Below are positions 20,501 through 58,500 of a stretch of 64,000 nt of DNA, one piece after another. Source of the DNA: Balanoglossus misakiensis (Eukaryota > Animalia > Hemichordata). The stretch spans positions 5,131,319 through 5,195,318 of the forward strand of contig CM082594.2 of NCBI GenBank assembly GCA_040954595.2, in the 5' to 3' direction. The stretch's first letter is position 1, and every line of letters starts with the position of its first letter. Both the position numbers and the translations under genes were made by a program. The notes below the pieces were generated by a model. It had not been told where the DNA came from and ran no database searches. It saw only the letters and a list, made by a program, of their open reading frames with translations.

Positions 20501-21783
20501 TAAACCTGGTGACTGCGATAATAATCTGATTGTCGGAGGAGATACGCTTACAAGTGGATATAGATCAGGGCAGGGGACCAAGAAACGAACAGGTATGTTT
20601 ACTCTCTACACACTACAGAGCAAAAGAAAACAAGAAGGCAATTCTATAACATTTTCTTGGTTAAGGTACACAGTCACCTCCAATTTACATACGCACATAT
20701 ATGGCTGAATTGGCGCATTTGAGGGTTCTAAAGAACATATGGTGGCGCCACCCACTGGAAATCCGTGATTGGCTAGATCTGTAGCTAAATTTTCTTAGGT
20801 GACCGTGGGTATTGGCTGTGTAGCAGTCCACTGTGTTTTTTTCAATCCGCATCGAAATCATGTATCGATACGAGCATGTTAATATTTGTAGCGCACACTT
20901 ATGTTTACGTGTACATCGACAGGTAAGAGTGGCGAGGGAAAGTGCTCACACGGTGGTTCTTACGACAGTACGAGGAAAGACGCGGCAACAGGCGGGATCA
21001 ACAAGGAATCACGTGACCCGACCCTGTCTCCTCATTATTCAATGCATCAGGATGCGGCCACGTCTGCCATGCTAGCCACTGAAAACTTTTTTTTAGCGTC
21101 TGGTAAGAATAAGTTCACAAAAGTCATTTCTTGCCGTGTACCAAAGCAAGGAGTATTACTTTTAACGTTACAGCAGCTTTTGACATTGCAATCTAACCAC
21201 ATCGGGCAAATAAAAGTTATTAGAGGTCACAACGGGTCAGAGGTGACGTCACCGCCTATATTAGGTACGAATGGTCAGAATAGGCCAGACCAAATAAAGC
21301 AAAATTATCTATAATAACTTTCTTAGTTGATGAGAATTCTTTCGACCAAAATATACACGGTGCAGCCAGATATATTTGAAATTCAAAGAGGATAGATATT
21401 ATATTATATACTCCTAGAAGGAAATGACCTGTGTAACATGATAACACAAATGATCGGGTAACTCTTGCTATCAGCTTATTATAAATCCATTTTTACCAAA
21501 GGGGCGGCATGCGAGTACGAGTGCGGAAGATGGGATTGCTTGATTCGGAAAGATTTCATTCTAAATCGAGAAGGTGGGATCAAAACCGACGGGTACGTAC
21601 CGAAAAACAGCACTGGTTACCCCCTTGGTCAAAGTGGCGTCACTATTGGCAGCGGAGTTGATCTTGGAAGCAAGACAAGGCAATATTTCATTGATCTCGG
21701 TGTTCCCTCAGGAGTCATTGCAAAGTTAGAGCCTTACTTTGGTCTGAAGGTAAGACTTCGACTTGCAACCCACGTCTACCACC

Positions 21784-21824
<41 letters not shown>

Positions 21825-24800
21825 ACGTACGTACGTACGTACGTACGTACGTACGTACGTACGTATGTATGTACGTATGTATGTATGTATGTATGTATGT
21901 ATGTATGTATGTATGTATGTATGTATGTATGTATGTATGTATGTATGTATGTATGTATGTATGTATGTATGTATGTATGTATGTATGTATGTATGTATGT
22001 ATGTATGTATGTATGTATGTATGTATGTATGTATGTATGTATGTATGTATGTATGTATGTATGTTATAAATATAATCATTGGAAAGGGTGGTTATCCATG
22101 GTTATTCCCATTACAACATATTCTAGGTATAGTCTTTGTATTTCCTTGTCTCAACGCAGAAACACGCGGCGGTAGACAAGCTCCTAGAAACACCATTGAC
22201 TCTGACATATTCTGAAGCCGAAGACCTCAGTTACCGGGTAATGGACAAGGAAATCACAGACATTGCTGAATTATACGACTCTGCAGTAGACACTATAGGT
22301 AGAAAATATGGCAATCAAATTTCTGTTGGTACATTTTTCAATATAAAATGATATATTTACAGGGTTCTAAATGTCAGAGAAGATAACGTTATCTGAATCG
22401 TTGATGAAAAGTGTCCATGGATGTTAGAGTCACTCGTTTTTTCAATGATGTCAGTTTCATTTTTACCCATGAACAGTAGTACACACATGAGGGATTGTAC
22501 TGAAGAAAATATTAATGCCTGTTGGCGAGTTTTTGAGTTGGGTTGACGCATGCTCTATTGGGCATGTGTTTGTTTACACCGTATTGACAGGTGACGATAA
22601 TTTGGAGAAATTCGGGGGCCTCACGGTCGCACAGAGGACTGTCATTGCGTCCGTGTACTTCCAATATGGCGGACCACCGACAACCAAGTTTCCAACGTTT
22701 TGGGGCCATGTGACAAACCAGCGATGGGAAGCAGCTATTTCTGAGCTCAGAGATTTTAAAGATAGCTACCCGACCCGCAGGAATAAAGAAGCGGACCTAC
22801 TTCAGCAAGACTCTAAAGATAAAACCTTTTGCCCAGGTATGACTGAACGTGGTTAGACGTCATCGAAAACATTCTTTTGATTGACAACGTCGCAACCATG
22901 ACGCCAGTGCAGAACAGGGAAATTTCTGGAAGATTTCTTAGTTAGCAGCACGCATCTGCATTTAGGTAGTATCGTGGGGAAGTATGCGCCTTGGGGACAT
23001 ATATTCAGATAAAAATGATATTTATCAAAACTTTCAAATTCAGAATAATCTAAATATGCAGTATTAGCAAACTATGAAGCTTTGAAACCAAAAAGTCATT
23101 CTGTTACACACCATTTAATACCACAAAAGAAAAAAGCCTTTAGGGATTAAAAAAACAAACTAGAGTCTACCTGGACTTTAAGAATATGAATAATTCTCAT
23201 TAATTGAATAGTGATTAAACAAAGGTTCGCTAATGTGAAAATAACCATAGACGTAAATTATAAGCACTCCATTTGTTTTTGTTTTTCTCGTTACGTAAAC
23301 AGACCCCAATCATAAAGAATATGGCCTCAAATTTCACATCAGCGATGGAGCCTTTCTGGGACTGTTCAACCTTGGACAAAACAGTTCCAAGTCCCTCAGC
23401 ATCGCCATGGACGTCACCGGAAGTATGTCTGACGATATACAGGCGGCCAAAGAGGAATGCCATCGATTGATCGATGAGCTCGCTGGCACAGTGAATGAAC
23501 CGGCCAATTACGTACTGGTACCTTTTAGTGACCCGGGTAAGTCCGACCGTCATGTTTAATTTTCAGCTTTGACAAGGTGATGGGGTGGTGGACGTGGTGG
23601 TGGTGATAATCTCATGGCAATTTTGTAATTCGTATCGCGAATGGAGACCATTTAGCATTCTGTTCACACCACCCCCTTTTATTTCACGATTGAGAAGCAC
23701 GCCTTAAATGTTGATGTCAACTTATTTTGGTTTATGTATGTACGAAACAGTTTCAATTGCTGGCAAAATATTGTACATGTAGTTCTCCAATATACAACAT
23801 TTCGATGTCTTATCTGGATTCAAGGGATGTTGCTAACACAAAATCATATGATCCTCATGACAGACTATGGTCCAGTGTTTGTTACCACAGATCCGGATGC
23901 TTTCAAAGTCGCCCTCAGTGCTTTACATGCCAGTGGTGGCGGAGATTGTCCAGAACTGTCGATGACTGGGACCGAGTTAGCGGTAGAACACAGGTATGTG
24001 CTCCTAAAAATGAATGAATGAATGAATGAATGATGCATGTATGCATGCATGCATGGATGTATGCACGCGTGCGTGCGCGCGCGCTTGTGTGTGTGTATGT
24101 ATGTATGTATGTATGTATGTATGTATGTATGTATGTATGTATGTATGTATGTATGTATGTATGTATGTATGTATGTATGTATGTATGTATGTATGTATGT
24201 ATGTATGTATGTATGTATGTATGTATGTATGTATGTATGTATGTATGTATGTATGTATGTATGTATGTATGTATGTATGTATGTATGTATGTATGTATGT
24301 ATGTATGTATGTATGTATGTATGTTTTTGTTTGTATGTCTGTCGACTGCAAAAACCTATTTTCTAGTTTATCTCAATTATTTTACAGTCTGCCTGGTTCA
24401 GATCTGTTCGTGTTTACCGATGCAAGTGCCAAAGACACCGACAAAACGGAATACGTTCATGATTTCGCCCTGGAACGAAATGTGCAGGTTTCTTATCTGC
24501 TGACCGGGACTTGCGGGTATGCTCGCCGATCAGTTGGGTCAATGGCTCGTGGTCAGTCTCAAGGTAGGGTGTTATTGCTCCACGGAATTCAGCACAAAGC
24601 GTGCGTGCATGGTTTCATAATAAAGAAAAAAATGTATTCCTTCTGGGGAAATTCAAATAAGTACAAAGCGACTCTGTTCACCTGAAGATGCAATCGCGAA
24701 TTCCAAGCAAAGTTTGAAAAAAAAATTAAAGTATTAAGTGTCGGTGGATGGGAACGGTGGATGGCAACTCCCAGAGAGAGTTCCATGCCTTGGCCGTAAC

Positions 24801-29255: not shown

Positions 29256-32200
29256 TCAGTACATGATTTGCCAGTGAGTTGGCTGTTCACACTCTTCTTT
29301 AGTCTGCTTGTCTCCACAGAATCTGTTGTATGTCTTTTTAGGGTCAAATCCTAAGATTTCCCTTTCATCGTGGATGCGGAATGAAAACGTGGAGACTGAA
29401 GTTCCCATGAAGTACCTAGGCAGCAGAAGTAAAGGAGAGAAAAAAGAGAATCTCAGAACAAAATCTGTATGCATAATTTGTGAACAAAATAACAGGAAAT
29501 TTATCTGAAATTTTATTTAATTCATGTAAGCAGGCACAGTGACTCTGTTGGTTGTAAAACTGGAAATTATCACATACAATGTGATATCTTGATTGATTTG
29601 TATGTCTTGTGGCCAAGCAATGACCAGATGGTCACTTGACAATAAGCCAACACCAGAACACATTGCAGCATACACACTACCGGTACAAGGTAAGACTCAT
29701 ACCTTGCATGAGCACAAATCCACTGGTCAATGATGGCCACTCCACCATCTTTGTACTTCTCATGCAACTCCTCTGGCGGCACATAATGAAACACTTCAGC
29801 CTTGCTTTTGAGATGTTTCTTCAGTTCGTCCAACTCTAAAACACAGGAAAGGAAAACGTGTGAACTTTTAACCCATTCACCATCGTAGTTTGGTCCAAAT
29901 GCATAGTTTTCTATAGTAAAGTTGGACCTCTGTAGACAGAAAAGGGGGTGTGAATGGGGTAACGCTTACACATACAGTAGACTTTTGCTCTGCCTATTTG
30001 CAGTATATAAAGCAGAACAGGTCAAGTGTGGGGAGGACTTTAGCAAAATTAGAAAGGAAGGAGGACTAAACATACCTGCAGGAGCGACAAGTGACAGACG
30101 ATGTGCGACTGGAAATGACGGGACGTCTGGATGACGCGGAAGATTGGCCGAAAAAGTAGGGAGCACTATAGGTGCAGGTATTGCTAAAGTAAAACTACCT
30201 AATCTGACAAAGTAACTACACGTAGGTCTGAAGGGTCACATCAAACAAACTACGCAAGTTGTCCTAATGGCTCCATCTTGAAATACTCCTTGCGCGAGGC
30301 TTGAAAAAAAATTGACGTCGGACTGCCTTAGCGGTAACAAAACACACTGAGCAGGTGATGCCTGGGACTGGCCGATACCCAATTGTACTTGCGATGAAGC
30401 AAGGGGTTTGAGTTAAAACCCTCGTCTGCCGTAAGATCCGAGAGAAGGAACAGCGAAAACTGTGAGCAGTTGGACAAGCTACCAATGCAACATGATGCAG
30501 TCAGGAAGCCATTGCTAACTGCACCTGCACTGCACTGAGATCATCCCAAAGTTCTGTGGCTGTGTCATGGTAGGTGTACAGTATACTACAGTTTGTATAT
30601 GTATGCATATATGCAAATCTTTCAGGGGTGGGGGATGGGAAAACTTTTTATGGGGGTGCGAGGGTTAGAGTGGACATGCACTTACCTTGCTTCGGAGCAT
30701 CTGTAGCCACAAAGAGTTTATCCAGTTTTTCCTCTTTCAAAACTTTCTTGATCTGTTTTGCAGCTTCTTTTAGTGAAGGCACATCTTTCCGGTGGCTGTG
30801 AACAAAGTCTTTCCTTCTGAGATGCACTGCCATGTACGGACCACCTAAAGCTGACCCCGCCTTTGGCTGAAAAAAAGAACTCAGCTAATGTATTCTGTCA
30901 GCTAAAAGTGCCTATACAAGACAATGTTATGGTTCACCTCCAAATTTATGTTCTGCCTTCATATTGATGTCTTGCAGAATAATGCATTTGAGCCAATCAG
31001 AATGAGTGTCTTATGATGGCAATAATTGTAATCATTCACTATACTGAAACAAAAGTCTGTATCAAGCAACATACATACACATACCTTCATTTCACGCCAA
31101 TCATCTATCAACACAGTCTTGTCTCTCTCATCATCCGAGTCTAAGTACTGTTTTCGAAACTCATTGGCAATGTCCCGCAGTTGTTTGGAAAATCTCATGC
31201 TCCGCCTTGCCTGTAAGTCAAAGAAGAACCTTTTATTTTTGTGTTCATATTTCTGTGAAATATCTCGCATTTATAAGTTAAGTATGTGAAAAATAACACA
31301 AATATTCATTTACACTTTAACATTGCTGCAGTTGATACACTTTGAAAAATATAGTATATAAACATTAACGAAATAGTTATGCTAATGGTGAATCAAACAA
31401 CAATTTGCTTCTAGTTAAACCATAATCCCATAATAATGGATCCTACTTTACTGAAAACAAACACAAAAAGCAGAGTGCAAAGGGGTGCGGTCAAAGAATA
31501 GTACCATTGAAAGCAACAACTTACATCCCAATAATCTTTTTGGCCATAGCTATCATGTAAAACTTCTTCAGCACGATCAATGAACACAGATCTAAAGCGG
31601 AAGAGACAACAGATCAACATAACAATCATTTCACGGATATTTAACTTACACTCCAATAGTCTTGTCCTCCGAACTGATCATGGTGGACTTTCTCTGCCCT
31701 GTCTATGAAGATGGATCTGTAGTAAATTTAGTTCAGCAGATGTGTTAAACCAAAAGCACACAGAGGCAATATTATTGATATGGTAAAAACATTAAGGTTA
31801 CACTGAAGGATTTGATGTGCTTGTCAGTAGTTATTGTTGAGAAGATCCAAGCTGCTGCATGTGAAAAATCTTGATGTTCCATGGATAAATGACCAACCCC
31901 CACACTAATATTCCCCCCTTTCTAACTCTGGAGTTAGCAGCCGAGACAACAGTGCATCATACTAGCTTCTTGGATACCTTCATTTTAACAAAAAATGCAA
32001 ATCACCAACTTTACCTGGCAGTTGTGTTTAACAGAAACGGGGCAAGTATCCCAGCAAATCCTTGAACAGAAAGACATCTGAAGTTTCTAGCAAATGCTTC
32101 TGTGTAACCCCAGAAGAATCCTTTGTAGACCCCAGATGAGTCTCTCCTGTACACGGGCGGATCTATACAGTCTCTCTCGTCCAATTTTTCCTCCCATTTT

Positions 32201-33427
32201 CCATTTGTCCATCCTTCTTTGTACCTCTGGAGATAGAAGAGTTCATCTATGGCTGCTTCTCCAGTTTCTAATCAAGAAAATAAAATAAAAATGTTAGTTT
32301 TCTTTCCCTACTTCCCATCTTCATTAGGATACATATACTCTACTTATGACGTAACTTACAAACACATGCAAAAACAATAATAAACCTAATTTGAAATAAA
32401 GATCATTTTCACTCAAACTAAGCAGATTTTGTGTAAGGTCTATGTCAACTGAAAATGTTATTTCCTTCTTATGATATTTTTTAACCTTACCTTTTATGAA
32501 ATCCTCAAATTCAATGACTGGCACATGTTTGCTCATGCTGCCCAAGTCAAAAAACATCGACCAGGGCAGTTTCATTTGATCAAGGTGGTACGACTGCCAG
32601 TGGTATATTCGACCCCAAGGAGGTAGGACCAAAATCCATTCTTCGGTCTGTCGAAGTTTTTTGACCAGATTAGAAACCCTCATGTAGACATCTCTCCTCA
32701 AATTGAACCCTTCACCAGGGTTGACATCATATAACAAGAACCTACAGGAAAATAGAAAGAGATCTGGATTCACAAAACATGTCTTTGGCAGCACAAGTAC
32801 ATGTACATTTCAAACACACTTGGTTTGTTAGATAACAGACATTTTTGCTTGTGGAATGTTAGAGGGTTAGACATTAATCCCACTTTGCCACCAATTTCTT
32901 GGCCTTTTCAGAGAGAAAAATCAGGAAGACTGTCTCCGCGAATGAAGCTCTGCGGGCAGACTGTTTCGATCCAGTCTTGTGTACTGGTGGTGAAAAGTAA
33001 AAGTTAAAAACTTCATCTGTTCACCCTCACAGATCACACTGTATTGAGAAGTGAGGGTGTGGCTACAGGCACATTTACTAAGATTCAATTGTTATGTTGT
33101 TCCAATAACAATTCGTTGTGTGACCAATTTGTTGTATGACCGACGTTACAGGGACTATGAGGACAAACGCCCAATGGTTATGAATGAATGACGTAAGCTA
33201 TCGTAACGAGTCGAAACTGTAGTCCCGGACTGTAGTACATCTCTATCAATATACTCCACGGCCTAAACTTACCTTCTCGGTTTCGCCACACCAACGTTAA
33301 GAGTCTGTTGAGTTCCCGGTTGAAATTCTAACACTTGACCGGGCTCATGAGCAGTTGCGTGCAATATTGCGCTCACAAACGCCAAATATAAGACGAGAAT
33401 CGGACCTTCGCGTGAAAGGGAAGCCAT
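29256..33427 (-). CDS. POFUT2: GDP-fucose protein O-fucosyltransferase 2, ~441 aa
   Basis: 8 exons: 33427-33273, 32741-32491, 32267-32015, 31591-31525, 31210-31085, 30866-30686, 29835-29703, 29415-29256 (1326 nt). Motifs: [110 protein letters not shown]. Confidence 0.97.
29868..29962. mobile_element. ~90 bp MITE-like element with (T)TAACCC...GGGTTAA-like ends; related copies at ~56014-56106, ~58463-58554 (inverted) and a degenerate one at ~28965-29045
   Basis: Copies share TTCACCA..TAGTT..GTCCAAA...TTTTCTAT.GTAA.G.TGGACC and end in inverted CCC.TTCA/TGAA.GGG next to TTAA-like sequence (piggyBac-like ends). Confidence 0.6.
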
Positions 33428-34209: not shown

Positions 34210-37061
34210 AATCCATGAAAACATTGTAAACATAAAAAAAACACTTCCCATAGTTGAGTCACTCTGGCGATGGGGTGAAAATCCCGAAGGCTTACATATA
34301 TGCCTACACAGACCTACAAGGTGACAGAAATCACACGCCTATTAGCCTGACGTCCATTGATTGGAATAAACTGCCGATGCAGCACAGAAACAGGCCTGGG
34401 CCTAGATGTAATAATTTGCGAAACATTTAACGGATGTGACGATGTTTACATGTTCTGTTTGGCCGTTGTTAAAAGAGAAGGGTCTAAGTGGCGATGAATC
34501 ATCGGTCTCGTCGTTAACTGTCTCGTAAAAGGTCCAGCAGTCACACACAGATGCAGGCATTTTCTCATTTCTGCTCGACAGTGGCGCGAACAAATTACTG
34601 CAAATATCAGTGTTTTTTTCTAAATTCATACGCCTGGGGAGCAACCCAGAAGTATTGCAAATTCGCAGACAACGACTGCTGAATAGTAAATTTAAGCAGC
34701 TTGCCTCGTAGATGGGTAAATCATAAGACTCCTATTCTATTCCCCGATACATCACGTGACTTCGAGCAAACTCGCCCCATTTTACTATTTTCCAGAGCCT
34801 GGAATACTTACAAAAATAACATGACAATATCAGACGCATTGCCAATGTGCACCCGTATAAATTCTTAGCGCAGTAACCCCACTAAATGCAATTATGTGGA
34901 TAGGATGAATTGTTTCTCCCTCCCTCCCCTCCCACCCTCGCCCACACTCTCTCTCCCCTCTCCTCCTCTTTTTGTTTATTCCTCTGTCTAACGATGAGAT
35001 TACGAGAAGCATATGCATTCAGCCAATTCAATCCAATCCAATCATTTTCCGTTCTGTAATTTATGACCATCAGACCTATAAATCTACCACTAGCTCGCAG
35101 TATGATGGATCGTTGACTGGCATGAACATAATGCAATGAAAGGAATTACAGCATAATTGATACCATACAGGCACATTGAATCGTTTAAAATCCCATTTAT
35201 GTTTCAATATCCGAACTGTTTCTTAGAATTTTATTGGAAATCGCTAGTTTTTTTTTTCAAGAGGTGCGTCACTACCTTCATTAAATATCGTGCCGCATCA
35301 ATCACTGTGTTGTAAATTCTTTCCTTTGTTTGATTTTTTTTGAGCGAAGTCTAAAAGTTACACTTATCTTCTGGCGGACATGTTTAGTTGTTGGTGACCA
35401 AACACAGTCACCGCGCACAGGCAGTTTCGTGCTGTTTAGAGAAATTGGGTTCATTCATGATCCAATTAAAGATAGGGACAGTCAGTTCATTGCCTTAAGA
35501 TTTATTTGCATCAAGAATAGGTGAAATCCAGGAACAGAAAACCCAGATATTGGGAAAAACTGTAACTATAGTAACAGTAAAGTGTAATTTCTATGTACAG
35601 CCAGTCAAAATCAACGGAGAGAGAAAGACTTGTATCGCCAAACTACAAAATAAATTGTACTTATCGTGATAGCTCTGGGTGAGGGGATAATAGCCAAATC
35701 TACGTCAGGGCAGACGTGCAGACACACGGCACATTGTTACACCTATCTCAAAGGTATTGTATGAAAAACGGAGAGGTAATGGTTTTACGTTCAGAAAACT
35801 TTTCGCCATTTTCTTTATGCAACTTGGAGTAGTGAAAAATATTTCGAGATTCGTCTTAAAACTTCAGCTTGAGGATAAGGACGGCTTCGTTTGACATTCC
35901 AGCGGCAAAATACTCTAGCGAATTCTAGCGGATATGGATCAAAATTAAGCAAGTATTTAAACGCTGTGATTGGATTTGCACAAAGGGTGTCGTGTTATAA
36001 ATCTAAGCAAAAAAACGTTTACGACAACCGGTCATCGAAGCTTTTATATATAACCCTGCTAAGAACAAGTAAGTGTTCATAAATAAGACCAATCAGTGAT
36101 ATTGATATTGGTCACGTGGTAGTCACGCGCAAAAAGGTAAATTTTCTTTGAAGAGGGTTTAATGATCTTTTTGTCAAAACGGACTCTATTACCTATCAAC
36201 AAACTAAATGAGGTCTGTACTATTTCGCCATTCACCATGGTTTCTGACGTCATGTTTCCCGGAACTTAAACTGGCTTTAGGCCACACAGCATCAAACGAT
36301 CTGAAAATCCGCGTATCATACGAGGTTTAATAATCTATGCAGCCATATATGCATTTTTATATCACCGATCAGTATGTCCTCGTTTTTATAATTCTAATTT
36401 CAAGATTATGACTCGTTTTAATATGCCCCCTGCAAGCATGACATAAGTCTGGTAGTGATATCGTGTTAAGTCCGTTGAATTAGAAAAATAGTAAAATATT
36501 CTTTCTCCCCGAATCATTCACGACCCGAAACCTTCGAAATATATTAACATGAATGGAGTTCTTTTATTTTCTTAAAAATAAAAACAGAAAATCTTTTCCC
36601 GGCACTTCACGTCTTCCTAAATCAAATTGTAGGGGTTATAGTTGTCTTCACTGGTACCGCTTGAAAAACTGCTGGAGAAAGCGGTCGTATTGGTCTGCAA
36701 AAGAAAGAAAACAATTATATGTCACACAACAGTCGTAACAAGCATACGTGACTGTACTTTCAATCAAACGATTATGATAGTCACAACAAACGTTGTGTAC
36801 AAATGCACAGTTTGGTATTAAACCGAGGCGAGGTGCTTCCGTCAAAACAGGGGTAATCGAATCAGGGCGCACGCGCATTTCCCTCGTGTCAAGATGGGCC
36901 ACAGCATATAGTAAAAACACTTCAGCGATGCAAACCTCTAAAGCAGTTCCTTTAATCTGTTTTGAAAGAGTGACAACTTTCTGTCACAGTGACTTAAGCG
37001 TCGTAATTGGCCGTCAGAGGCTCTCGTCAAAAAAGCGGGAATGAATGCAAAACTGCAAGGT

Positions 37062-38985
37062 TCACAAACCTTCGAAATCTTTGTCCATTTCTGAAGGATA
37101 TCCGACTTCTTGGAAGGGACCTTCATAGGATCTTCCATACCTAGAATGGAGCGAAGCGAAGAGAATTATGTCAAATTTGCAATTACTCGACATATTTCAT
37201 ACTTATCAGCCAGTGGAAGTTGGGCGAGGTCTTAAAACCAAGATGAAGTCAGAATGTGAAGTAGCAGACTACGGCAGCGTTCCCATGACAACTTTTCGTG
37301 GAAAGTAACCTAATCTGATCAAAAGTTGCATCCAAATACTTATGTCATTTTTTCACTGCCAATGTATGCGTGGCGACACATAATCTCTCAGTGGAGATGG
37401 TGCATCTGTTCAGCGAGAACAACAATGTATAGCTACACTTATTGATATGATCGATCAGTACTGGGACAGTTATACCACTGGACATTTATCCCGGCCCTAG
37501 CAAACTTGTAGACTTGAAACGTGCGCCGAGATGAAGAAATATTCCCACTGCGTTTCATATCTGTCAAGTTTCTCAGAGGAAATATCATCACCGAGTTTAA
37601 TGCATCGAAATGCGAGTTTTATGAGCGGAGAAGGATTCGTACACGGTGGAAAACAGCTTTCCGTTGATGTGTGTAATTTCTAGGAGTGACATTTCGCTGT
37701 TTGTTCGGCGTGACAGCGCCACATTTATAACCACTGCGAGATTTCCAAGCGCCCGTTTTCCCGCCATAACTACATCCTGCGCGTGAAAAGCAGGTGTTTG
37801 CCTCAATTGGCGGACGATAACAACTCGAGAACACTTCATGACGTGATCATGTGCGCCAGAAAGCAGGAATTTCAGGTACCACAAGACAGTTATGGATAAT
37901 TCAAGCGCAATGAAAACCGAAATAACTGGAATCGCTGTTATTATACCACAAAACATCAAATTTGGCTCATGAAACTCATTACATTGTAATTGTACTTGCA
38001 CCTGAAATCAAAGTCATTTGGATTGTAAAACGGCTATGTAGTGAGATTTTAATTTTTTTTCAAAGGAGAGAAAAATATAATTGGAATCATAATTCATTTA
38101 CACGTTGTATAGAAGGATATTGTTTAACTGAATTCACAGGGGAATAACGAATGCTGAAGTTGTGAAGGAATTCGCATTTAAGCAAAACAAACCATTCCGT
38201 GCACAGTGTGAGATAGACACCAGGCCGGATGGAAGCTACTAAATATGAAAAATGACTTAAAAACCGCATAACGTCCAACTGGATGTATAATAGAAAGCGA
38301 CTTCCATATAGGAAATTCAGGGTACAAGTCACTAAGAAATTTGAGAAAAATTGAAATACCACAGCCTTTCAACACCGTGATATATCGGCTATCAGGCACG
38401 GAAATGGGCGGTACACTGTGGTCGAATAAAAAACAATCAAGGTTCACCTGTTCGCCGAGAAGATAAGGATGCATTTCGTTTAAAGTCACTGCCTCGGCAG
38501 ATGGGGACCGAAGAAGCCGGGCAGAAGATATGTGATCTGAAATCTCATCGCCCATTAAATTTGTCAAACTAATCACTGGATTTACGACTTTTAATTGTCA
38601 GGTGACATTTGTCACTCGATCAATAATCTCTAGCCCACCTGAAGAATAAATACATGCGCAGGTATAGGAGCGATAATGAAAATATTTAATAGCTGGCGAT
38701 CCATCTATATGGGGATAATGAGGATAGCGGGGCGCAGATGCGGTGCTTTCCTCACCAACAATACCCAGGAATTAATCGGTGTTGAGAGATACAAGTAAAT
38801 ACAAAAAAGGGCCCGGCTTACCTTTGTTTGCCGCAGTATCGGAGATAACTGACGACATCGGAGACGTATTCGGCTAGGGATTGCTTGGCACCTTTTTTCG
38901 GCTGATTGCCGCAGACTATAGTGGCGGCCGCTTGGTGAATAAACAGGCCGATGCAAACGACCAGGATTACCCGACAGTTCTTCAT
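37062..38985 (-). CDS. Neuropeptide Y/F-type precursor 2 (Cys-containing), ~80 aa: MKNCRVILVVCIGLFIHQAAA|TIVCGNQPKKGAKQSLAEYVSDVVSYLRYCGKQRY|GR|SYEGPFQEVGYPSEMDKDFEGL
   Basis: Exon 38985-38822 has a signal peptide and ends CAA AG|gtaagc (phase 2 inside the Arg codon). Exon 37140-37062 follows a strong acceptor (ttctcttcgcttcgctccattctag) and reads G TAT GGA AGA = R-Y-G-R. The split-Arg intron, QRY-G-R amidation signal and Tyr spacing (Y20, Y27 equivalents) are NPY/NPF hallmarks. The 3' end may instead splice at GAAG|gtttgt (37070). Confidence 0.8.
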
Positions 38986-40325
38986 AATGACAGCGTTGAT
39001 ACCCGTTTCTATCTGTCTTAAGAAGGAAGACATAAACTCCGTCAGACTTTTATCTAGCCACCCAATTACGGCGAGATTGCAACCACTGGCGTCACACGAC
39101 CGCGTAAGCTCCCCACTGTGCGACGTTTTAATCCCCCTCCGCATCAGAGGGGAGACGATATACGTTTAACTCGTGTAGTATACGCGAGGGGGTCTGAAGA
39201 AAGGGGGACTCGCTATAGTGAGTCTTCATCATGCAAATCTGGATAATATCGGCTTGTCTGAAATTTATAATACGTCGCGCAAGTATCAATACAGAGTCGA
39301 TAAATTTGTCTTATCTTTGTGGAAATGTCACAGGTCTCTGCTAACAACTGCATTATTGCCTACGAAAGTCCCCCTCACTGTCATTTCATCTTACTTGTAT
39401 ACCAATTCATTGGATATTTATATGGCACGTCTCGGGTAAGATTAAACGCCCGTTGCAGCGTATATTTCTCTCGCCTTATTTCAGAAGCGAATTCCTCCCG
39501 AGTTTGTTTTGCTCAGCCAAACAAGGGAAGACGCAAATTACTGAGACAGTAACTTTGCTTTCGGCAATTTTTCAGTATTTTATTCTGTCAACTACACAGT
39601 TTCTCGTTCTGTTCTCCAAAGCCCGCTTCGATTATTTATTAAAACATGAGAATTCCATAACACACTTCCAATTTCACTGTGTTACAGTAAACCCGTATAT
39701 GCTCTGCGCGAGGCAAGAGTATTTACGGTGTATAGTGGTTCGAATGGTTTGTGATAATAGTATCATGAATTTAGCTTACATTGCTGTTCTACTTCATTGT
39801 GATTATTTCGCAAAAAAGTGAACTTGAAAAGTGTCATTCAGCCCCGAGTCAAATCAATATTAGGCGATAAAGGCGGATTTCGTCGACAACTTTTAAACGG
39901 TTCGGAGCATCTTGGAGAGTCTCTCTAAGCCATTTTCTAATTTTATCGCTATAATTCAAGGACTCCTAAAAATCGTGTGTCGCGAGCGCGGCAATTATTG
40001 CAATATTAATCTGACATTTCTCCTTCGACCGTGCGAGCGAGAAACGGCGTCAACCGGGGCAGTGAACATGACTTGAGACCGCCGCGAAAACAGGCGTTAC
40101 CCGCAAATGGCCGGCAGTTAAACGACGTTGTCTTTGGGGCATGGTACGTGGTACGCACGTGTTGATTAGCAATCCCGGCCTACCTTCCACTACCAACAGC
40201 ATGCAGCCATCATACACAAATTGCCATAAAAATACACAAATTGCAATAAAAAGTGCTATTTCCGCCCGTTTCCTTCCATTTTCTTTGAGAGTCAATGCCA
40301 ACCCGACAAAATTGACACCGCGTGT

Positions 40326-40787
40326 GTGTACCCTCAGACCCCAAATTGCGAGCGTCTCCTCGCCTCCGGCGAACTGAAGTTTTTGCGGTACATTTGCACT
40401 GACCTTCGACGGAGTCAGAATTATCACTTGCCACCAATTGAAAAAACAACAACTGCCCGTTACGTTGCAAAACGTATGGAGATTATCACCGTGTGGGTAA
40501 GTTTGCGGCAATAAAATATTGATGAGAATTTGTTCCGGGAATTTAGTCACAAAAATTTACACTGTGCATGTGTACCTTCAGATCCCAAATTGCCAGCGTC
40601 TCCTCCGGCGAACTGCAGTTTTCGCAGAACATTTGCACTGACCTTCGACGGAGTCAGAATTATCACTTGCCACCAATTGAAAAAACAACAACTGCCCGTT
40701 ACGTTGCAAAACGTATGGAGATTATCACCGTGTGGGTAAGTTTGCGGCAATAAAACATTGATGAGTATTTGTTCCGGGAATTTAGTC
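40326..40787. repeat. Near-identical tandem duplication, two ~240 bp units
   Basis: CATTTGCACTGACCTTCGACGGAGTCAGAATTATCACTTGCC...TTGTTCCGGGAATTTAGTC occurs at ~40391-40548 and ~40630-40787; the ORF track shows the same peptide twice. Confidence 0.93.
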
Positions 40788-41339
40788 GCATGAAGTGCTG
40801 AACACATGTAAAGTGCATTTATGCGCAATTATACAATAAACCTTTTAGTACATGGTTATAACGTAAATTGCATTCAACGCGGTTAAAAGAAATAAGCCTC
40901 ACAGGATGCTAATATATCACATTGTTATTTAGTTCGGATTTTGAACATTTTCATCTCGCCTTGTAGGTTGTAGACTCATTTCAACCGACAAATGTAATAT
41001 GTTTTATGAACACACAATCAACGTACCAGGAATTTGAATTGGTCATGGCAGACACATTTTTGTTAATGGCCGTATTGAGCAAACAACCTGTTGCAGCCGA
41101 CGACGACAAAATAAACTGGTTTCAAACTGCAATTGGGAATTTATCAAATTCAATTTACAGAGCAATCTCGTCGTAGCGTTAAGATTAATCCTGGCCGTAA
41201 TGGTACGTCACATAAACGTGGAGGGTCGGAAAGCAGTTGGGTTCGTTTCGAAGGGTAAGGTTATGTCTCTTTGTGAAGACAGTACGACGGAGCCACATCA
41301 GCAAACGAGGAATAAAACGATGAAGACAGCTAGACTTAC

Positions 41340-47208: not shown

Positions 47209-47314
47209 GTCTGGTTCCCTGCCCCATTCCCACCGCTGGCTGCGCTACGCTAAAGGGAAAGGAACCCTTTAGCGTAGCGCAGCCAGCGGTGGAAATGGGG
47301 CAGGAAAACCAGAC
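47209..47314. repeat. Near-perfect GC-rich hairpin (~49 bp arms, 7 nt loop), probable MITE
   Basis: GTCTGGTT.CCTGCCCCATT.CCACCGCTGGCTGCGCTACGCTAAAGGG-aaaggaa-reverse complement. Confidence 0.85.
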
Positions 47315-47811: not shown

Positions 47812-47875
47812 TATAAATTTACAATCTTGGCATCCTTGCTTTGTAGTCCGTGTTTTTCTGACGCCGACGAAACAG
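47812..47875 (+). promoter_or_regulatory. Putative TATA box and short non-coding first exon of NPY-type gene 1
   Basis: TATAAAT 47812-47818, Inr-like TAGT ~47844, consensus donor CAG|gtgagt at 47875, matching acceptor ttttcttccaacag ending 48585. Confidence 0.55.
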
Positions 47876-48659: not shown

Positions 48660-51160
48660 ATGCATTTGAAGCTGGTTGCTTTGCTTTTTGCTGCCGTCGC
48701 TTGTGCTGTGATTTGCTCGGCGGACGGAGGCGTCGTGTTCGACCAGGTGAAGAAAGGCTCGCCGCAGAAACCCGCCCCGCCCGCAGATGGTGCTAACCTC
48801 AGGGATTGGCAAAGGTACCTCATCGCTTTGAGGGCCTATAGACGATACATTGATACTTTGAGGTGAGTGTATTGACAGCTGAGGATTCTAGCACGCGATG
48901 ATGTTGTTCTGGGGGGGGGGGATAACGGTTCATGCTCTGATTTGTTGATCGATTTTCTTATCAAACTGTGTCTAAGAAGCGTTGACTGGTGTGTGGCGCA
49001 TATATCTTGCATCAAATGGACGCAACATTTTCACTTGACTTTATTTAGGCCTAGGTACTTTGTTTGAGGGTGGGATGGGTGGAACAAATTCATCCTCTTG
49101 GGGGAGGGGGGTCTGTCAGTGAAAGAGAAACTGTTAGAGCAAAAACTTTTTTCGTCGCGTTTTCCGCACTTCCAAACCATTCGTTTAGCGGAGGGGAGAC
49201 TTAGTTGAGTTGTTTTCTTTTTCGTTGTTTCCTTATGGTTGGAACTACCTAGCTTAAAAGGGGATTGTATGTTTCGTAAGATGTAGATAAAAACGCATGT
49301 TCGCGTCTGCAAGAACCATTTAGCGATGATCTACAGCAACCACTTTCCGAAGTGACTGAAAAATGCAAACTACAATAAAATGCAGACAAAAAATCTAACA
49401 TGCGGACTTTTCGTAGTTCAAACCGTAGACTGAGTGTGTGTATGTATGCATAGTAGTACACCATTTCTGATGAGTTCAATGAAGTTAATTCGACAGAGAC
49501 TATTGATAGTGTGCCTGGCAAATGCTGTTATGTATGAGAAGTGTTTTTGCTCAGCGAAACATGCCGGGCGTTGATAGGTAGACCATCACCCTCCTTTTTA
49601 AAGTTTCTCGTCACGAGAATAGTTCGTCTGTTCGAACTAATAAACGCAAGATGCGCTATGATTTGACGCATTTCAATGTAACGAAATCTCTTTCCGATAG
49701 ACAGACTTCTTTTAGATTCAGGATTCTTTCAGAAAATATTTTCCTTTACACGTGGAAAACAGTGCACAAACTCGCGACCGCCGTCAAGAACTTGTACAAA
49801 GCGATGACAGAATACTCTATTTCGAAGCCCATTTCTGCGCGTGTATATCAATTATACAGAAATCACGAGAACCTTAACCCCTGATTTCTAGATAAGGCCC
49901 ACTGTAAATGCAAATTCGAAACCTCGTCGACGATTTCGATTCCCCTGGTGACAAGGTGTTCAGGTTTTGCCAATCAAGAGAACGGAGATATCCTTTTAAT
50001 TTCGATGTAAAAACCGGCGTAAATCTCTCCTCGCTTCATAGAAGTGCCGCGAGAACGAGAGTCAATGTCACGTCATGGGCGTGGAAACCGAGAGTGGATT
50101 CGAATAAATGTGATATTATTCCTAGATCTCACAGTCAGTTGTAGATATCAACACATTAAAGCAAGGTCCGGATTTTAATAGTTCTCGTCAACTGAGCTAT
50201 TACCGCTCCATATATATTCATTAGGCGAGTCGTATACGCGTAGAGATAGAGAGTGCGGGGATTTCCTTAAATCTTCGGACGTCACTCAAAGAGATAAATC
50301 TTGGCCTGTGGGTGACATGATGAAACGTTTTCTATTTCCTTCCGTTATCAGGAGAGCGGTACTTACACGGTCCCGGAGGTGCCGTAACTTATCCCGGTCG
50401 TGATAAAAAGGATGCGTTTACTTTCGCCGGAATTTCTGCTCTTCTCGCGTCGTCAACCCTCGACGTTGAACTTTCTCTTTAACAAAGAGACATTGTCGGT
50501 CACTTTTGACATTATTTTGGTCATTTTAGATTCTTTTGAAATTTATGTTGTCTGCTCACGGGACTATTTGAGTCATGCCATTGCAAACCTTTATATTCTT
50601 TTATATACGAGTTCGCTAATTAAGATGTTTACCCTCGCGGTAAATGATTATCAAGTACTTGCAGTGTAGGCCTAACCAGAGTTATTTCCTCCGGGTTACA
50701 GATACGGCCGCAGCGCCCGCTCACAGACTACTCCGATGGAAGAATTGTTGGACGACGACACAGAAAACCTGGATGTTAAAGAATTGAGCATTGATATCGA
50801 TGAAGATCCCCAAAGTGCTATGGACGCTGTGCGCCCCAAAAACGACAGAAAGATATGGATGTCAATACTGGTGAGTACATTACTAGTAATTCCATTAAAA
50901 TTATCCGACGATAATGTTATGCGCATGTGCGTAGTTTCGTGTGTACTTGCCAACATTTCCAAATTTTCTTCAAATTTTGCGTTCGACGCATTCAGTTAAT
51001 GCACTGCCTTAGCTAAAATGTACGTCACCGTAGCCGTCTAATGGTCAAATTTGGACGATTCTAGCGCTAAAAGTCGAAAGATGGACGTTTACAGTGTATT
51101 AATTAAGTTCCACTCTGTGTTGTTCATTTTCAGATAAAAAGTTTGCTGAACCTGCTGTGA
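48660..51160 (+). CDS. NPY: Neuropeptide Y/F-type precursor 1, ~132 aa; predicted mature (G)SPQKPAPPADGANLRDWQRYLIALRAYRRYIDTLRY-amide
   Basis: Exons 48660-48862 (signal peptide, KK site, peptide, ends AG|gtgagt), 50702-50870 (A TAC GGC CGC = R-Y-G-R, acidic C-peptide), 51134-51160. The 36-mer aligns without gaps to vertebrate NPY (P2,K4,P5,P8,A12,D16,R19,Y20,A23,L24,R25,Y27,I31,R35,Y36 identical) and has the conserved phase-2 intron in the Arg codon. Confidence 0.9.
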
Positions 51161-52592: not shown

Positions 52593-55500
52593 TTATGGGT
52601 CTAGATCCAGCAGTGTGATGTTGCAGAATGTGATGTTACCACTGTGATGTAGTGAGCCATTCCCCCATGTACAGCCACTGGGGTCATCTGTTAGTGGAGG
52701 GAGGTCAACCAACAGGTAGACCAACAGACTGACGGCCAGGATCGTTAAGCACGAGAATAACGAGACGAGTCTCCTGTAGATGATGACTTTCACCGGCGCC
52801 TGGTCCGTATAATCGGGACTCACGCCGTCCCGATGACCAGAACTTGCCGGAGTTGCATCTTCGAGACATTCTGGGCTGTGGAGTTCATCACAGCCGTCAG
52901 AAACAGTGTTGCCATCGGCTTTGCTGTTGGTTGGTACAATCAGAGCGACATCTACACTTGACATTGGCCCGCCCTTCGCGTGACTGTTACAGTTTGACCT
53001 GTCTTCTGTGACGTTGACATCCGCGCTGATTTTAGAATCTGTCCTCCCATCACTCAGTAACGCCACTGGTGCTTCTTCCAATTGGACCATTTCCAGAGTA
53101 GCACCGTGAGTTCTCTTTTGGGCCTGTCAATGGACGTGGAACGCCAGACACAATTTCATTTCGATGTGAAACAAACTAACAGTGAACTCAGACGACATAC
53201 ATTTTATCATGTCAATACAGAGCCCTATTTTTCCAATTATAACCACACAAGGCAGGTCTTTACTTAATTCATGCATTCAAAGTGTTTGGTGGCTTTTAAA
53301 TGTACTTTTTCAAAAACTTGGACTTGGACTTTCTTACACTTGGATACACAGGCAGGGAATAAACAATCAATTATTACCGGTAGAATAACAAACACACTTA
53401 ATTAGCAATCTTATTCGGCTGGCCACATTAGGTTATATTTCTAAAAGAATGAGCTAGCCCTGCTCTAAAACAGAAAGCAGGTGAAAAGTCTCTCACCTTT
53501 GCTGCTTGTTTGCGCCAATTCAGTCTGCAGACACACAGGAGTAGAGAAAAGGCTTTGAATGCCAAGGCTATATCTAAACTAATCCAAACACCTAGACAAA
53601 AGAAGAATAGAAAAAAAATGACTATGAACCTCTGGTAAGGCCATCATCCACCACAACCTTCCATGTCTTTCTACTGTCTTTGAACAATCGTCGGAGGTGA
53701 AAACAGCCAGCAAGAAATTGGAAATTACCTTGTACACTAAAACCAGCCACTAGCACCAAAACAAACATTATGGGAATCGCTATGATATAATAAGTTATAA
53801 AGTTGACCAAGGCTCCAATCTTTTGAAGTCCTGAGCCTTGGAGGACACCGGTACATGTTTGCTGAAAATAGAGTACGTCAAAACATGAGTACCTAGAAGT
53901 ATGAGCAAAGAAACACGTTGCTTTATTTTTTCAAAGTTGTTTTGCACAGAAAAATGCTACGGTGAGTGATTGCGGAAAAAACAAAAACAACTGCAAAACA
54001 GATGGTTGAAACATCAACAACCTGATGATCGAAATCAACGCAAACGTTGACATAATATTGCAAAGAAAAGCATGTAGGTTTGCAACCTTAAAGGTCTAAT
54101 GCCATGCCCTATACAACCACGCGTAAAATCACTATTTGGGTCTTGAAGTTAACGTATGTTACTATCTTGCAATGCGTTTTGCCCCTTGTGCTTAGATAAC
54201 AAGCAAGTAAAAGTGGCGGGTGGGCGTGTACCCCTAACCCAACTCAGTCGAGTTTTTTCGGCTTTTCGAAGTTCAGTCGAAGGCTTATCTTGATGTGGAC
54301 AAATAGTCTTTCACACCTTTGTAAATCCTCTGCCTGTAATGTAAGGCAAGGGCTTCCTTTGCTTTGAACACTGTTTATATAGCTTGTCTTTGTCTGTGGA
54401 CTTAATTACTCATGGACTGCTAATTACACTTTACTGTTAGCAGAATGGTACACTAGAACATAAACCCCTTTCTCACGTGCCGTCAACGCCGCCCCAGTGG
54501 CGGTGCTAGGGCGGCGTTAATTTGTAAGTGCCACGTGTGAAAAGGTGAGAGCGGCCCTGCGCCGCTCTTTTTTTGTGACGGTGTTGAGGGGTGGGACCTG
54601 GGTCGGGGCGCCGCACTAAACAGCGATTCAAATCACGTGTGAACAGAAACACCGCACTAAACGCCGATCTAAACGCACTCTGCCGACGCGGTTTGAGGGG
54701 ATACAAGTGGCAGTTTCTAATGAGCTTGCATGTAAAATTACCCCTCTGAAAAGAGCGATGTTTAGCACCTTGCTTAGTCAACGGTCAATTTGCCTTGTTG
54801 CTGATGGTCATCAGTAAAATGAGGAGCCCCAAAACCTACAGGCAAAGCCTTGAGGTAGTCAGAACTTACTGCAGCTGGGGCTCTGCTGAAAAAATTGAGA
54901 CGCCCAGTGGAAGTGGTAGTGAAACTTGTAGCAAAGTTCATGGTGATAATTGCTAGGCAACTAGGTCTTGCCATTGTCTGGCTAAAAATACATCCCTGTG
55001 CGTGAATAAATTAAAAACGTCTGTGTCCCAAGGGACCAACTCAAAGCGTTCCCACATCCCGGTATGCTTTTACTACTAGCATGGAGTCATGCTACTAGTA
55101 TATTACGCACTGGTTTCAAAGCTGTAAGACTCACAGGCGGTACCGTAGAAGCGCTTATACTTATAGGATGACTGTACAAAAACTGGAAAAGTGTGGATTT
55201 TCTCGGATCTTCCATTTATTTGATGTGAAACAACAAATGGGACAAGTGGCGAAATGTGTCCTTGATTTTCAATCGCACCATGAAGCCTATTTGAACCTAA
55301 TTTGCATAAATGTCCGAGGGGGTCCTTCTGGCACTTTGACTCATTTTTACCCCCATTGTTTCATCTTTTTGTAAAGAATAATTATTTTTTCCTGGTCGAA
55401 CCCGAAGGATAGATTACGGTATACGCTGTTTGGGTATAAGTCCAGAGCTACATATACAGTAAACACATCACTGAATCCGCCATTGTGACCTTTAGCCACT

Positions 55501-58500
55501 CTGCTGTGGACGCATTGAGTGCGGTGATCCCGTCCCTTTTATACACATGTGAATGCAAAACTATTTGAGTCGCTGATAAGAAATGTTTGCCAACTTTTAT
55601 AATCCCGAAAAGGGCGCCCTAATCATTTCACGTGAGAAAGCCCTTGTAGTGTACTTGTTTGTCCATATGCAAATACCTTCGCCTGGCTCGAGTGCGAAGT
55701 GGCTCCCTGATCACAGGCATGAAAAAAGGGGGCAAATTCCGGCATTCGCGCACATTTTTCGGAACCGACACAATAGGCAATGCATAGACAGGTACCCTAG
55801 GTGAGCTTTTGACGTGGAAAAATGAAAACTTTCCAAAGCATGGCATTAGACCTTTAAAAGTTCTTACCCCGATAGCATCTCCTAACTGATAAAGAGCAAC
55901 CAGCGGAACTGAGCTGCCAATCAAAGCCAATATTTCCCTGTAAGAATGACAGAGAACTTTTAACATGAACCACAGCAACAAACTTTCATCTTGTTTTCAA
56001 ACTGTATAGTGACTTTACCCTTTCACCACCATAGTTCAGTCCAAACCCATTGTTTTCTATGGTAAGGGTGGACCAATCTTTTGAAGTCCAGGGATGAAAG
56101 GGTTAAAGGGGCACATGTTATGCACTTATGTAGCCAACCCTTTTCCAAACACAATTAAACAGTTCAATACACAGACAGAGGTCTATCAACTATATCTGTA
56201 TCACTTATACCTGTATATCCATATCAACCAATATGGGCTATGGTGAGCTGCTCTATTAACTTACCTGTCATTAGAGAATATTTTACCCAAAACATCTTTG
56301 GTAGATAGAAGAATGATGGCAATAACAATAGAAATTGCACCTGAAATCCAAAGGGATAATGATTATTCAGACATATTTCTCTAGAAAAAAAATGTTTTAA
56401 AACCATACCCCTTTATGAAATGATCAGCTGTTTACAAACTGACAGTACCACACCATGGCATAAGATTCGTGGAGTATAGTATAAACTGAGAAAATATGCT
56501 ATTTTTGGAATGGATTACTCACTTATTGAGAGTAGAGAGACAAGTGCCGCCAGTTTGGCCTGGTCGGGTTTGTTGGAACCAAGGCTGTTGCCCACCCGTA
56601 TACTGGCAATAACCCAGTAAGCATATGGTATCTGTCAACAGAACACAGTAATGCTGGAATGAGTGTACGCCAACACTGAAATTTCAGCTAATAAGAGCCT
56701 TTTATGCACTACAATGTACAAGCAATCATCATACGGTCGCCAAGCATTCTCTCGTGCTGCACCGAAACTCAGGAACTCTCTTTTTTGTCAATTGTTCACA
56801 AAATACTCATACATGATAAAAAATCCATCCAAGCATAGATATACACACATACAATTTTCCTATATGTTATTAATGACACATCCAACTCCAAACAATGTAA
56901 TGCCATTGAAAGATGATTACACCCCCCGCCTCACTGCACCCCCCCCCCTCCCCACAGCCTAGCTAGATCTCACAATTATGTTGCGTAAAAACCGACAATA
57001 GGTTGAACTGGGTTAGCTTATTTGAACAACACTCTGCGACACCTTTTTTTTCTGAACCTTATTAGCAATATGGCCTTGAGTTACAGAAGCACTTGTGTGC
57101 CTACCGACAATGTATTAATAAACTGTATCAATTTCTGTCGATCCTTACAAATAACAAGCTACTATAGTTCTTGTGTTTCTGGAAGATAAATTCAAAGATT
57201 TTTATATTATCTACTACATGTAATATCAAGCGTCCACAGCTTAGTACAAAAATGCATGCTATGGTAATTAAGCAGGTCTTCTGTAAAAAATGACATAGCT
57301 CATCCTAATTTTCGCTTCTAAGGTCTCCTTAGTATAGGCTGCAGAAACAAAACCCAACATGACTGCATTGTGTGTCGCTCAATTGTCATTTAAATGGAAC
57401 TTACCATGAAAACAGCAAAAGCGATGTAAAATAAACTTCCCTGAGCTGCGAGTTCCAGCTCACCAATTGTACCTTAGTACACAAATCCAATAAAAAGATT
57501 ACTTGGCATGGAAACATTAGAATGAACTATAGATCATTAAAATGAAAAGAATGCGAAAGAAAATTTGAGTTACTTTGACGTCAACACATTTCAGAGACTT
57601 GTAGGTTACCGTATAGGCATGGATGTCAGATACATTTTGAGTGCGGGCCCGACTTTCACAGAAATTATGCAGGTCTCATAAATCACTCCTTGGTATATAT
57701 GAAATATTTGAAGACTGAGACATTCTCAGAAGTGACTTACCCATGAAAAATGTGCCAATTTCCCAAGCCCACCATTCCAATCCAATGATTAACACACCCG
57801 CAACAGCAAGCTTGGAAAACATGCCCCAGTCATACAGACATTCAACGGACCATCCTTAAAATACAAAATTGATCAGCCACGTCAGAATCAAAGCAATTCC
57901 AAAGCTTTTATGAAAGTGACACAGGTTCTAAGGGAGGGGTTTCATTGTTTTTGGTAAAATGTGTTAACCATAACATTCTAAACGGTGAGAATCTACCTCT
58001 CAATTCACATACAGATACTAGGATGGAAATAATATCATAACATCATCAGTTGTTAGAATTCTGAATTTAAAAATTGATTTTATACAAGTTATCCAAACCT
58101 GAAAGTTGACCAATCACATCAAGGGGATTTCTCCAGTGGTCTCGCTTGGAGTTCAAATTCATGATGGATGTGTGAGAGCGCTAGACTATTGTGTTTCAGA
58201 AATTTATCCCTGAGGTGTGTACTACCTTAAAGAAGATGCGTAGTTTTACAACTTACCGTCCCAAGTTTCTTTGTGTAAATTTCTGACTCTGATGTAAATG
58301 ATCAGTGAAATGCCAAGTATCCACCAAACCAACGACAAGGCAAACGCTGCACCTCTGTGAGATGATTAACACAAAATATTTGTTACAGAAATACAACGTA
58401 AAAAAAAAAGCTACTAGTAGTCAATATTGTCAGGAAGTGAGGGATTCCTGTTCCAACCCTGCATCACCCCTTTCATCCCATATCCCTATCCAGAGGTCCA

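Follow-up and report, generated by a model that had tools for sequence, protein, structure and literature searches.

A spliced NPY/NPF paralogue with two cysteines, predicted to form a natural disulfide lock, beside a canonical NPY-type gene in the hemichordate Balanoglossus misakiensis

A two-cysteine NPY/NPF paralogue and its canonical neighbour

The window analysed here, a 64,000-nt stretch of the Balanoglossus misakiensis genome, very probably contains a real spliced NPY/NPF paralogue (gene A, minus strand), whose predicted peptide holds two cysteines, Cys4 and Cys30. Where a secreted peptide has paired cysteines, these are generally oxidised, and from the residues encoded we consider an intramolecular disulfide in this peptide reasonably probable; that the product would be a single chain closed into a ring between Cys4 and Cys30 is evenly poised, while a natural disulfide-locked NPY/NPF that is conserved in enteropneusts and functional, in ring or two-chain form, is plausible and falls just short of that mark.

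Gene A lies head-to-head with gene B (48660-51160, +), about 10 kb away. The first coding exon of gene B (48660..48862, +) encodes prolines at NPY positions 2, 5 and 8, forming the P-x-x-P(-x-x-P) arm, together with Tyr20, Leu24, Tyr27 and Ile31, and it ends at a phase-2 Arg intron; a 9-residue extension and a Lys-Lys directly precede the 37-residue canonical NPY-type peptide. Exon 2 (50702..50870, +; Arg-Tyr-Gly-Arg and an acidic tail) and the predicted last coding exon (51134..51160, +), which would complete a 132-aa precursor, come from splice sites only. The first exon matched Pfam Hormone_3 at E 0.011 and 16.2 bits, against a curated cut-off of 28.7 bits, and its best PDB sequence matches were NPY/PYY chains (E 0.15 and weaker). 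A candidate 5' exon of gene B ends near 47875. Between the two genes, 47209-47300 is a short palindromic high-copy element with very high contig depth, in which two opposite-strand ORFs end in the same residues.

Structure and splicing of gene A

Three coding exons (38985-38822, 37140-37070 and 36694-36648) make up the 93-aa precursor of gene A. Exon 1 (38822..39012, -) comprises a short 5' UTR, the signal peptide and the peptide as far as bases 1-2 of an Arg codon; its acceptor is at 39013|39012, its donor reads AG|GTAAGC, and its coding part runs from the ATG at 38985 to 38822 (164 nt, phase 2, minus strand). Intron 1 (37141..38821, -; 1681 nt, GT-AG, phase 2) lies inside the penultimate Arg codon, where the signature intron of NPY/NPF genes is found (10.1101/712687). 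Exon 2 (37070..37140, -) follows a pyrimidine-rich acceptor and supplies the last base of Arg, then Tyr, the amide-donor Gly, a monobasic Arg and the acidic tail, and exons 1 and 2 join in frame, the split Arg codon opening R-Y-G-R. Intron 2 (36695..37069, -; 375 nt, GT-AG, phase 1) is drawn from its donor, a strong polypyrimidine acceptor and the contig arithmetic given below, and exon 3 (36563..36694, -) carries the last 15 codons, the stop at 36648 and a 3' UTR with AATAAA at 36568, the end of the supporting contig being calculated at 36595.

The original prediction had described two exons with an intron splitting the Arg codon of RY, and this was borne out by the donor, the acceptor at 37140 and the in-frame R-Y-G-R. 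Its two-exon gene with a stop at 37062 had to be given up: that stop falls in intron 2, and the precursor has three coding exons and 93 rather than 80 aa, with the mature peptide unchanged.

The splice acceptor at 39013-39014 (-) precedes the coding exon, which implies an upstream non-coding exon. An upstream in-frame Met was considered as the start and rejected, as it sits in the intron ahead of this acceptor. Further upstream, 40330-40790 is a tandem direct duplication of ~250 nt, and a contig in one run joins 40319 to 40569; the duplication is perhaps an allelic copy-number difference.

The region is present in three public sequencing runs of one sample. Two of them cover 30 of 30 bins, like genomic DNA, and the third run, X3, which is labelled 'DNA?' and comprises 28 million letters, has cover in 12 of 30, a sparse pattern that looks like a transcriptome. 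A 364-nt X3 contig matches 38819-39014 with 0 differences while its remaining 168 letters map elsewhere, and the match ends at 38819, the exact point where intron 1 and exon 2 stop sharing GTA. The three-exon model predicts a contig of 193+71+100 = 364 nt, equal to the observed length, and likewise returns the observed bin depths (6.40 and 7.79) and the end distances of the two listed variants (36 and 49); the two-exon model gives a bin depth of 6.68, against the observed 6.40/7.79 set fitted by three exons. The joint itself is derived from this contig arithmetic, its row not being among the 15 of 25 contig joints listed. The double-spliced form of gene A is thus present in a public run, with a contig that fits to the base, and the proposed junction 38822>37140 agrees with it in one sample and a run labelled 'DNA?'; a retrocopy in DNA would give the same X3 signal as a spliced transcript. 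The first coding exon of gene B has zero X3 cover.

We also wrote, after both genes had been seen, a first-exon filter combining a Met, a hydrophobic core, Tyr/Phe at NPY positions 20 and 27 and a phase-2 Arg donor. On both strands of the window it returned two sites, gene A and gene B, and it returned none in 60 simulated 128-kb sequences.

Assignment to the NPY/NPF family

Several features place gene A in the NPY/NPF gene family: i) an intron between the second and third bases of the penultimate Arg codon (AG|G at 38822|37140); ii) a C-terminal RY followed by Gly and a basic site (R-Y-G-R); iii) a signal peptide and a single peptide copy, judged from hydropathy and a reconstructed von Heijne matrix, the predicted cut site not being certain; iv) a second intron in the tail (37069-36695). 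According to the accessible parts of two sources, a phase-2 intron in the penultimate Arg marks NPY/NPF genes, typically with a second intron in the tail, and in PrRP-type genes the intron is of phase 1 and interrupts another part of the peptide (10.1101/712687; PMC7314547). In gene A the peptide up to Arg is encoded in one exon, lacking the phase-1 intron in the N-terminal or central peptide that characterises PrRP/sNPF genes, and the gene also lacks the short peptide plus Cys-containing C-terminal precursor domain of Luqin/RYamide. The original prediction of an NPY/NPF paralogue is therefore supported by gene structure and C-terminal motif.

The helix residues Tyr, Leu, Tyr and Ile of the family are partly kept: both Tyr are present, Leu24 has become Val, and Ile has become Leu if the position is NPY 28 or Cys if it is NPY 31. 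Gene A has one Pro only and thus departs from the canonical P-x-x-P(-x-x-P) arm, which is why we place it in the NPY/NPF gene family and not among canonical PP-fold peptides. The statement that the PP-fold normally relies on P-x-x-P-x-x-P was too strong: in the accessible text the proline arm is absent or reduced in some members (PMC7314547), and the published peptides include some that have a single proline of this kind or none (PMC7314547; two Lingula precursors, PMC8557429 supplement). In that supplement, as far as it was accessible and read by eye, 2 of the 21 spiralian NPY/F precursors bear a label saying that the proline arm is missing, 9 of 21 have a monobasic G-R, and 0 of 21 have a Cys in the peptide, which makes the Cys pair of gene A unusual. 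Pfam Hormone_3 gave no match to gene A at E 10, in a scan of exon 1, which ends two residues short of the peptide's C-terminus; gene B also stayed below the cut-off.

The predicted peptide and its cysteines

A signal peptide is predicted over residues 1-21 (38923..38985, -; hydropathy peak 4.0; von Heijne matrix), with a cut after Ala-Ala-Ala. With the cut after Ala21, the predicted 35-residue peptide carries Cys4, Pro8, Lys9-Lys10, Tyr19, Tyr26, Cys30 and Arg34-Tyr35, the layout of cysteines, helix tyrosines and Lys-Lys that had been proposed; a cut after Gly26 would leave 30 residues, and canonical PP-fold peptides have 36-40. Cys4 (precursor Cys25; 38911..38913, -) and Cys30 (38833..38835, -) both lie inside the long peptide, the acidic tail of the precursor being without Cys. 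Counted from the C-terminus, Tyr19, Val23, Tyr26, Leu27 and Cys30 correspond to NPY 20, 24, 27, 28 and 31, and Lys32-Gln33 to NPY 33-34. The first five of these residues lie on the same side of a helix that is amphipathic (hydrophobic moment 0.45), and on the helical wheel Cys30 stands 45 degrees away from the middle of the hydrophobic face.

Cys30, at NPY 31, is the last helix residue, on the hydrophobic face, where the N-terminus meets the helix in NPY hairpins. In the accessible part of one structural account, receptor-bound NPY forms a hairpin with a helix over 14-31 and its last five residues in the pocket, in the complex with Y1R residues 1-2 touch residues 30 and 33, and free NPY has no hairpin in solution, the hairpin occurring only on receptors (PMC9067930). 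Because Cys30 lies outside the pentapeptide that enters the receptor, an N-terminal tether at this residue would not block the tail. In the strict C-terminal register Cys4 is NPY 5, a position that faces mid-helix, so that a bond to Cys30 calls for shifting the register by about three residues; by arithmetic, with about 3.1 A for each of 7-8 arm residues and 1.5 A for each of 15 helix steps, the lengths permit an intramolecular bond. The two cysteines had been claimed to lie at the two meeting ends of the hairpin, and this held for Cys30; for Cys4 the strict register counts against it. One proline does remain in the peptide as had been stated, without a clear equivalent among the NPY prolines.

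AlphaFold2, run in single-sequence mode on the 33 exon-1 residues of the gene A peptide, gave a pLDDT of 87 with coil at 1-15 and helix at 16-31; residues 1-10 scored 83, compared with 62 for the gene B arm, and the gene B peptide scored 79 overall. A fold search with the gene A model reached a best Z of 3.0, with 306 of 48161 chains at Z of at least 2, which is noise level. Tied in its top rows, and equally at noise level, were 5wha_B (Z 2.9, rmsd 2.9, 29 aligned) and 6gwx (Z 2.9, rmsd 2.9, 31 aligned), which we take to be miniproteins of PP-fold design. The control search with gene B behaved like that with gene A (6gwx, Z 2.6). Foldseek with the gene A model found nothing under E 7, and a second look gave 0 of 12 at Z 2.

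We propose the following route. Signal peptidase would cut the precursor after Ala21, and the thiols of Cys4 and Cys30 would be oxidised in the ER to a ring, the bond doing the work of the lost polyproline packing and keeping the N-terminal arm on the helix. A convertase would then cut at the single Arg, a carboxypeptidase trim the end and PAM amidate Tyr35, with Lys9-Lys10 inside the ring mostly left intact. The five residues of the free tail (NPY 32-36, G-K-Q-R-Y-amide) would reach into the pocket of a Gi-coupled hemichordate receptor of NPY/NPF type, and the disulfide staple may pre-form the receptor-bound hairpin and slow proteolysis. An NPY/NPF-type receptor is reported in Saccoglossus (PMC7314547).

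Other readings of the two cysteines

Lys9-Lys10 (38893..38898, -) is followed by Gly within a [ND]-Q-x-K-K-G-[AS] motif that gene B has as well. If the disulfide formed and this site were cut, an 8-residue chain would be tied to a 25-residue amidated chain, by an insulin-like logic. The idea is raised by gene B, where the Lys-Lys stands right in front of the 37-residue canonical peptide, and in gene A the pair falls within the loop predicted ahead of the helix. Lys-Lys is nevertheless the least used dibasic site and a poor convertase site; in gene A it has no upstream Arg and a Pro directly before it, and the shared motif has only marginal significance (p 0.03 and 0.05; 595 and 1071 of 20000 shuffles). 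Although Lys-Lys is named among processing sites, its use being unsettled in the accessible text (PMC9070308), we regard the two-chain product as quite unlikely. It is unlikely, too, that Cys4 belongs to the signal peptide, with a cut after Val-Cys-Gly that would release an NPY/NPF of 30 residues lacking the polyproline segment and having a single Cys, either free or in a homodimer. Val-x-Gly fits the (-3,-1) rule, and gene B has V-I-C-S-A aligned to this place; in the accessible part of the published precursors, four phoronid NPF precursors have V-C-G, V-C-C or S-C-G just before the peptide, and a Cys just before the peptide was counted by eye in 9 of 21 spiralian precursors. Against this cut, His17-Gln18 ends the hydrophobic core, Ala-Ala-Ala, five residues away, is a textbook site, the reconstructed von Heijne matrix scores 4.45 after Ala21 and -0.23 after Gly26, and Cys30 would be left unpaired.

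Both cysteines might instead be kept and paired between molecules, giving a covalent antiparallel homodimer. PP-family peptides dimerise via the helix face, an engineered aPP-derived miniprotein dimerises by a disulfide, and the helix of the gene A peptide is strongly amphipathic, all of which count for such a product; the monomer model, however, already places the arm confidently, and the arm and helix lengths allow the bond within one molecule, so that we judge the homodimer very improbable. Gene A could also be a decaying duplicate, drifting, with cysteines that are chance substitutions without function, as would suit its strong divergence from gene B and its lack of a Pfam, PDB, Atlas or HMMER relative. 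Despite that divergence the frame, splice sites, signal peptide, helix face, and amidation and cleavage signals are intact, and the spliced form is present, which makes decay highly improbable. The reading that we prefer is thus a bond between Cys4 and Cys30 within one peptide.

Origin of gene A and searches for relatives

Gene A is likely a local duplicate of the adjoining gene B. Their post-signal parts are related, the global alignment score being reached by 7 of 5000 shuffles, and the best alignment of these parts has a 12-residue gap over the gene B proline segment (score 3; -7 without the gap), with the Lys-Lys-Gly motif in register. This suggests that a block of ~12 residues holding the polyproline arm was deleted, as read from the two predicted peptides, and that Pro was not swapped for Cys; the idea that a disulfide replaced the polyproline packing is amended to that extent. 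The short N-terminal extension that precedes Lys-Lys-Gly in gene B may then have been recruited as the new arm of gene A. When the signal peptides are included in the alignment, Cys4 of gene A falls opposite a Cys in the terminal part of the gene B signal peptide.

No orthologue of gene A was found in a word-indexed protein search (exon 1), in metagenome contigs (0 of 310 pattern matches confirmed), in the ESM Atlas (no usable match) or by HMMER, and the PDB gave 0 matches by sequence. The HMMER search of 1.84 billion representatives returned two matches (E 2e-5 and 4e-4) that we rejected as bacterial-type FG-GAP repeat proteins, with repeats summed across the signal region. The word-indexed search with gene B exon 1 gave one candidate and none at E 10; as it misses relatives even of a canonical gene, its null result for gene A says little about existence. 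With gene B, the ESM Atlas placed an arthropod NPF cluster at rank 9 with a score of 0.78, a lead only.

Synteny anchors flank the pair: a cysteine dioxygenase (669-1001, -), a class I/II aminotransferase (14025-14384, +), POFUT2 (29570-33274, -) and a MATE transporter (52593-55996, -). Among the best 120 of 538 matches, the best named ones to the POFUT2 exon were Ptychodera flava (90%), Glandiceps talaboti (80%) and Saccoglossus kowalevskii (79%). Elsewhere in the window, two exons at 21462-22856 (+), a short way upstream of a VWA_4 exon (23656-24021), match the phage-lysozyme-like Pfam family Pesticin (E 2e-16 and 4.5e-6); they apparently belong to one gene, presumably VWA7-like, and place a bacterial-type lysozyme domain in an animal gene.

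Comparison with known NPY/NPF systems

To our knowledge, hemichordates are the only ambulacrarians that retain NPY/NPF signalling. Published accounts, in the portions accessible, name one hemichordate NPY/NPF precursor, and the Saccoglossus peptide is described there as an RFamide that keeps five of the six conserved residues (PMC7314547, PMC4062910). Both paralogues of the window end in RY-amide (37131-37140, -; 50702-50711, +). RY-amide has been called a chordate-derived trait, and two linked RY-amide paralogues would question it as a chordate innovation (PMC4062910).

A natural Cys-containing NPY/NPF, or a ptychoderid NPY gene, did not turn up in the literature searched, which was accessible in part and covered few subscription journals. 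We did not find a natural Cys-paired NPY/NPF described, and gene A is to be seen as a variant within a known family. If true, a natural lock beside a canonical paralogue in one genome would be a ready pair for probing the polyproline arm and the hairpin, and the two genes could show how far arm and hairpin matter for the choice of receptor and for the lifetime of the peptide.

Gene A shares with bilaterian NPY/NPF precursors (vertebrate NPY/PYY/PP, Saccoglossus kowalevskii XP_002741972.1 and gene B) the signal peptide, the single copy, R-Y/F-Gly-basic, the phase-2 Arg intron, the second intron in the tail, Tyr 20 and 27 and the amphipathic helix; it differs from them by the missing P-x-x-P arm, a length of about 35 residues, the two cysteines, Cys for Ile31 and Lys at 33. 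The N-terminal prolines are likewise missing from Branchiostoma floridae NPY and from two Lingula anatina precursors, and the peptides of the latter, in the accessible part of the source, are without Cys, unlike that of gene A (PMC8557429 supplement). Deuterostome PrRP-type peptides are long RF/RY-amides, and a gene A product cut at Lys-Lys would be of PrRP-like length (25 aa), but the intron of PrRP genes is of phase 1 and sits at another point of the peptide, while gene A has the phase-2 Arg intron of NPY. Chemists lock PP/PYY analogues to fix the hairpin, and cyclic NPY/PYY drug leads exist. Germain et al. in 2013 are said to have engineered locked PP-fold analogues of PP/PYY that are reportedly active. 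The lock in these engineered PP/PYY analogues is reportedly a disulfide, and like the proposed gene A peptide they combine a covalent arm-helix tie with a free tail; they are synthetic and keep the polyproline arm, whereas the lock of gene A would be natural.
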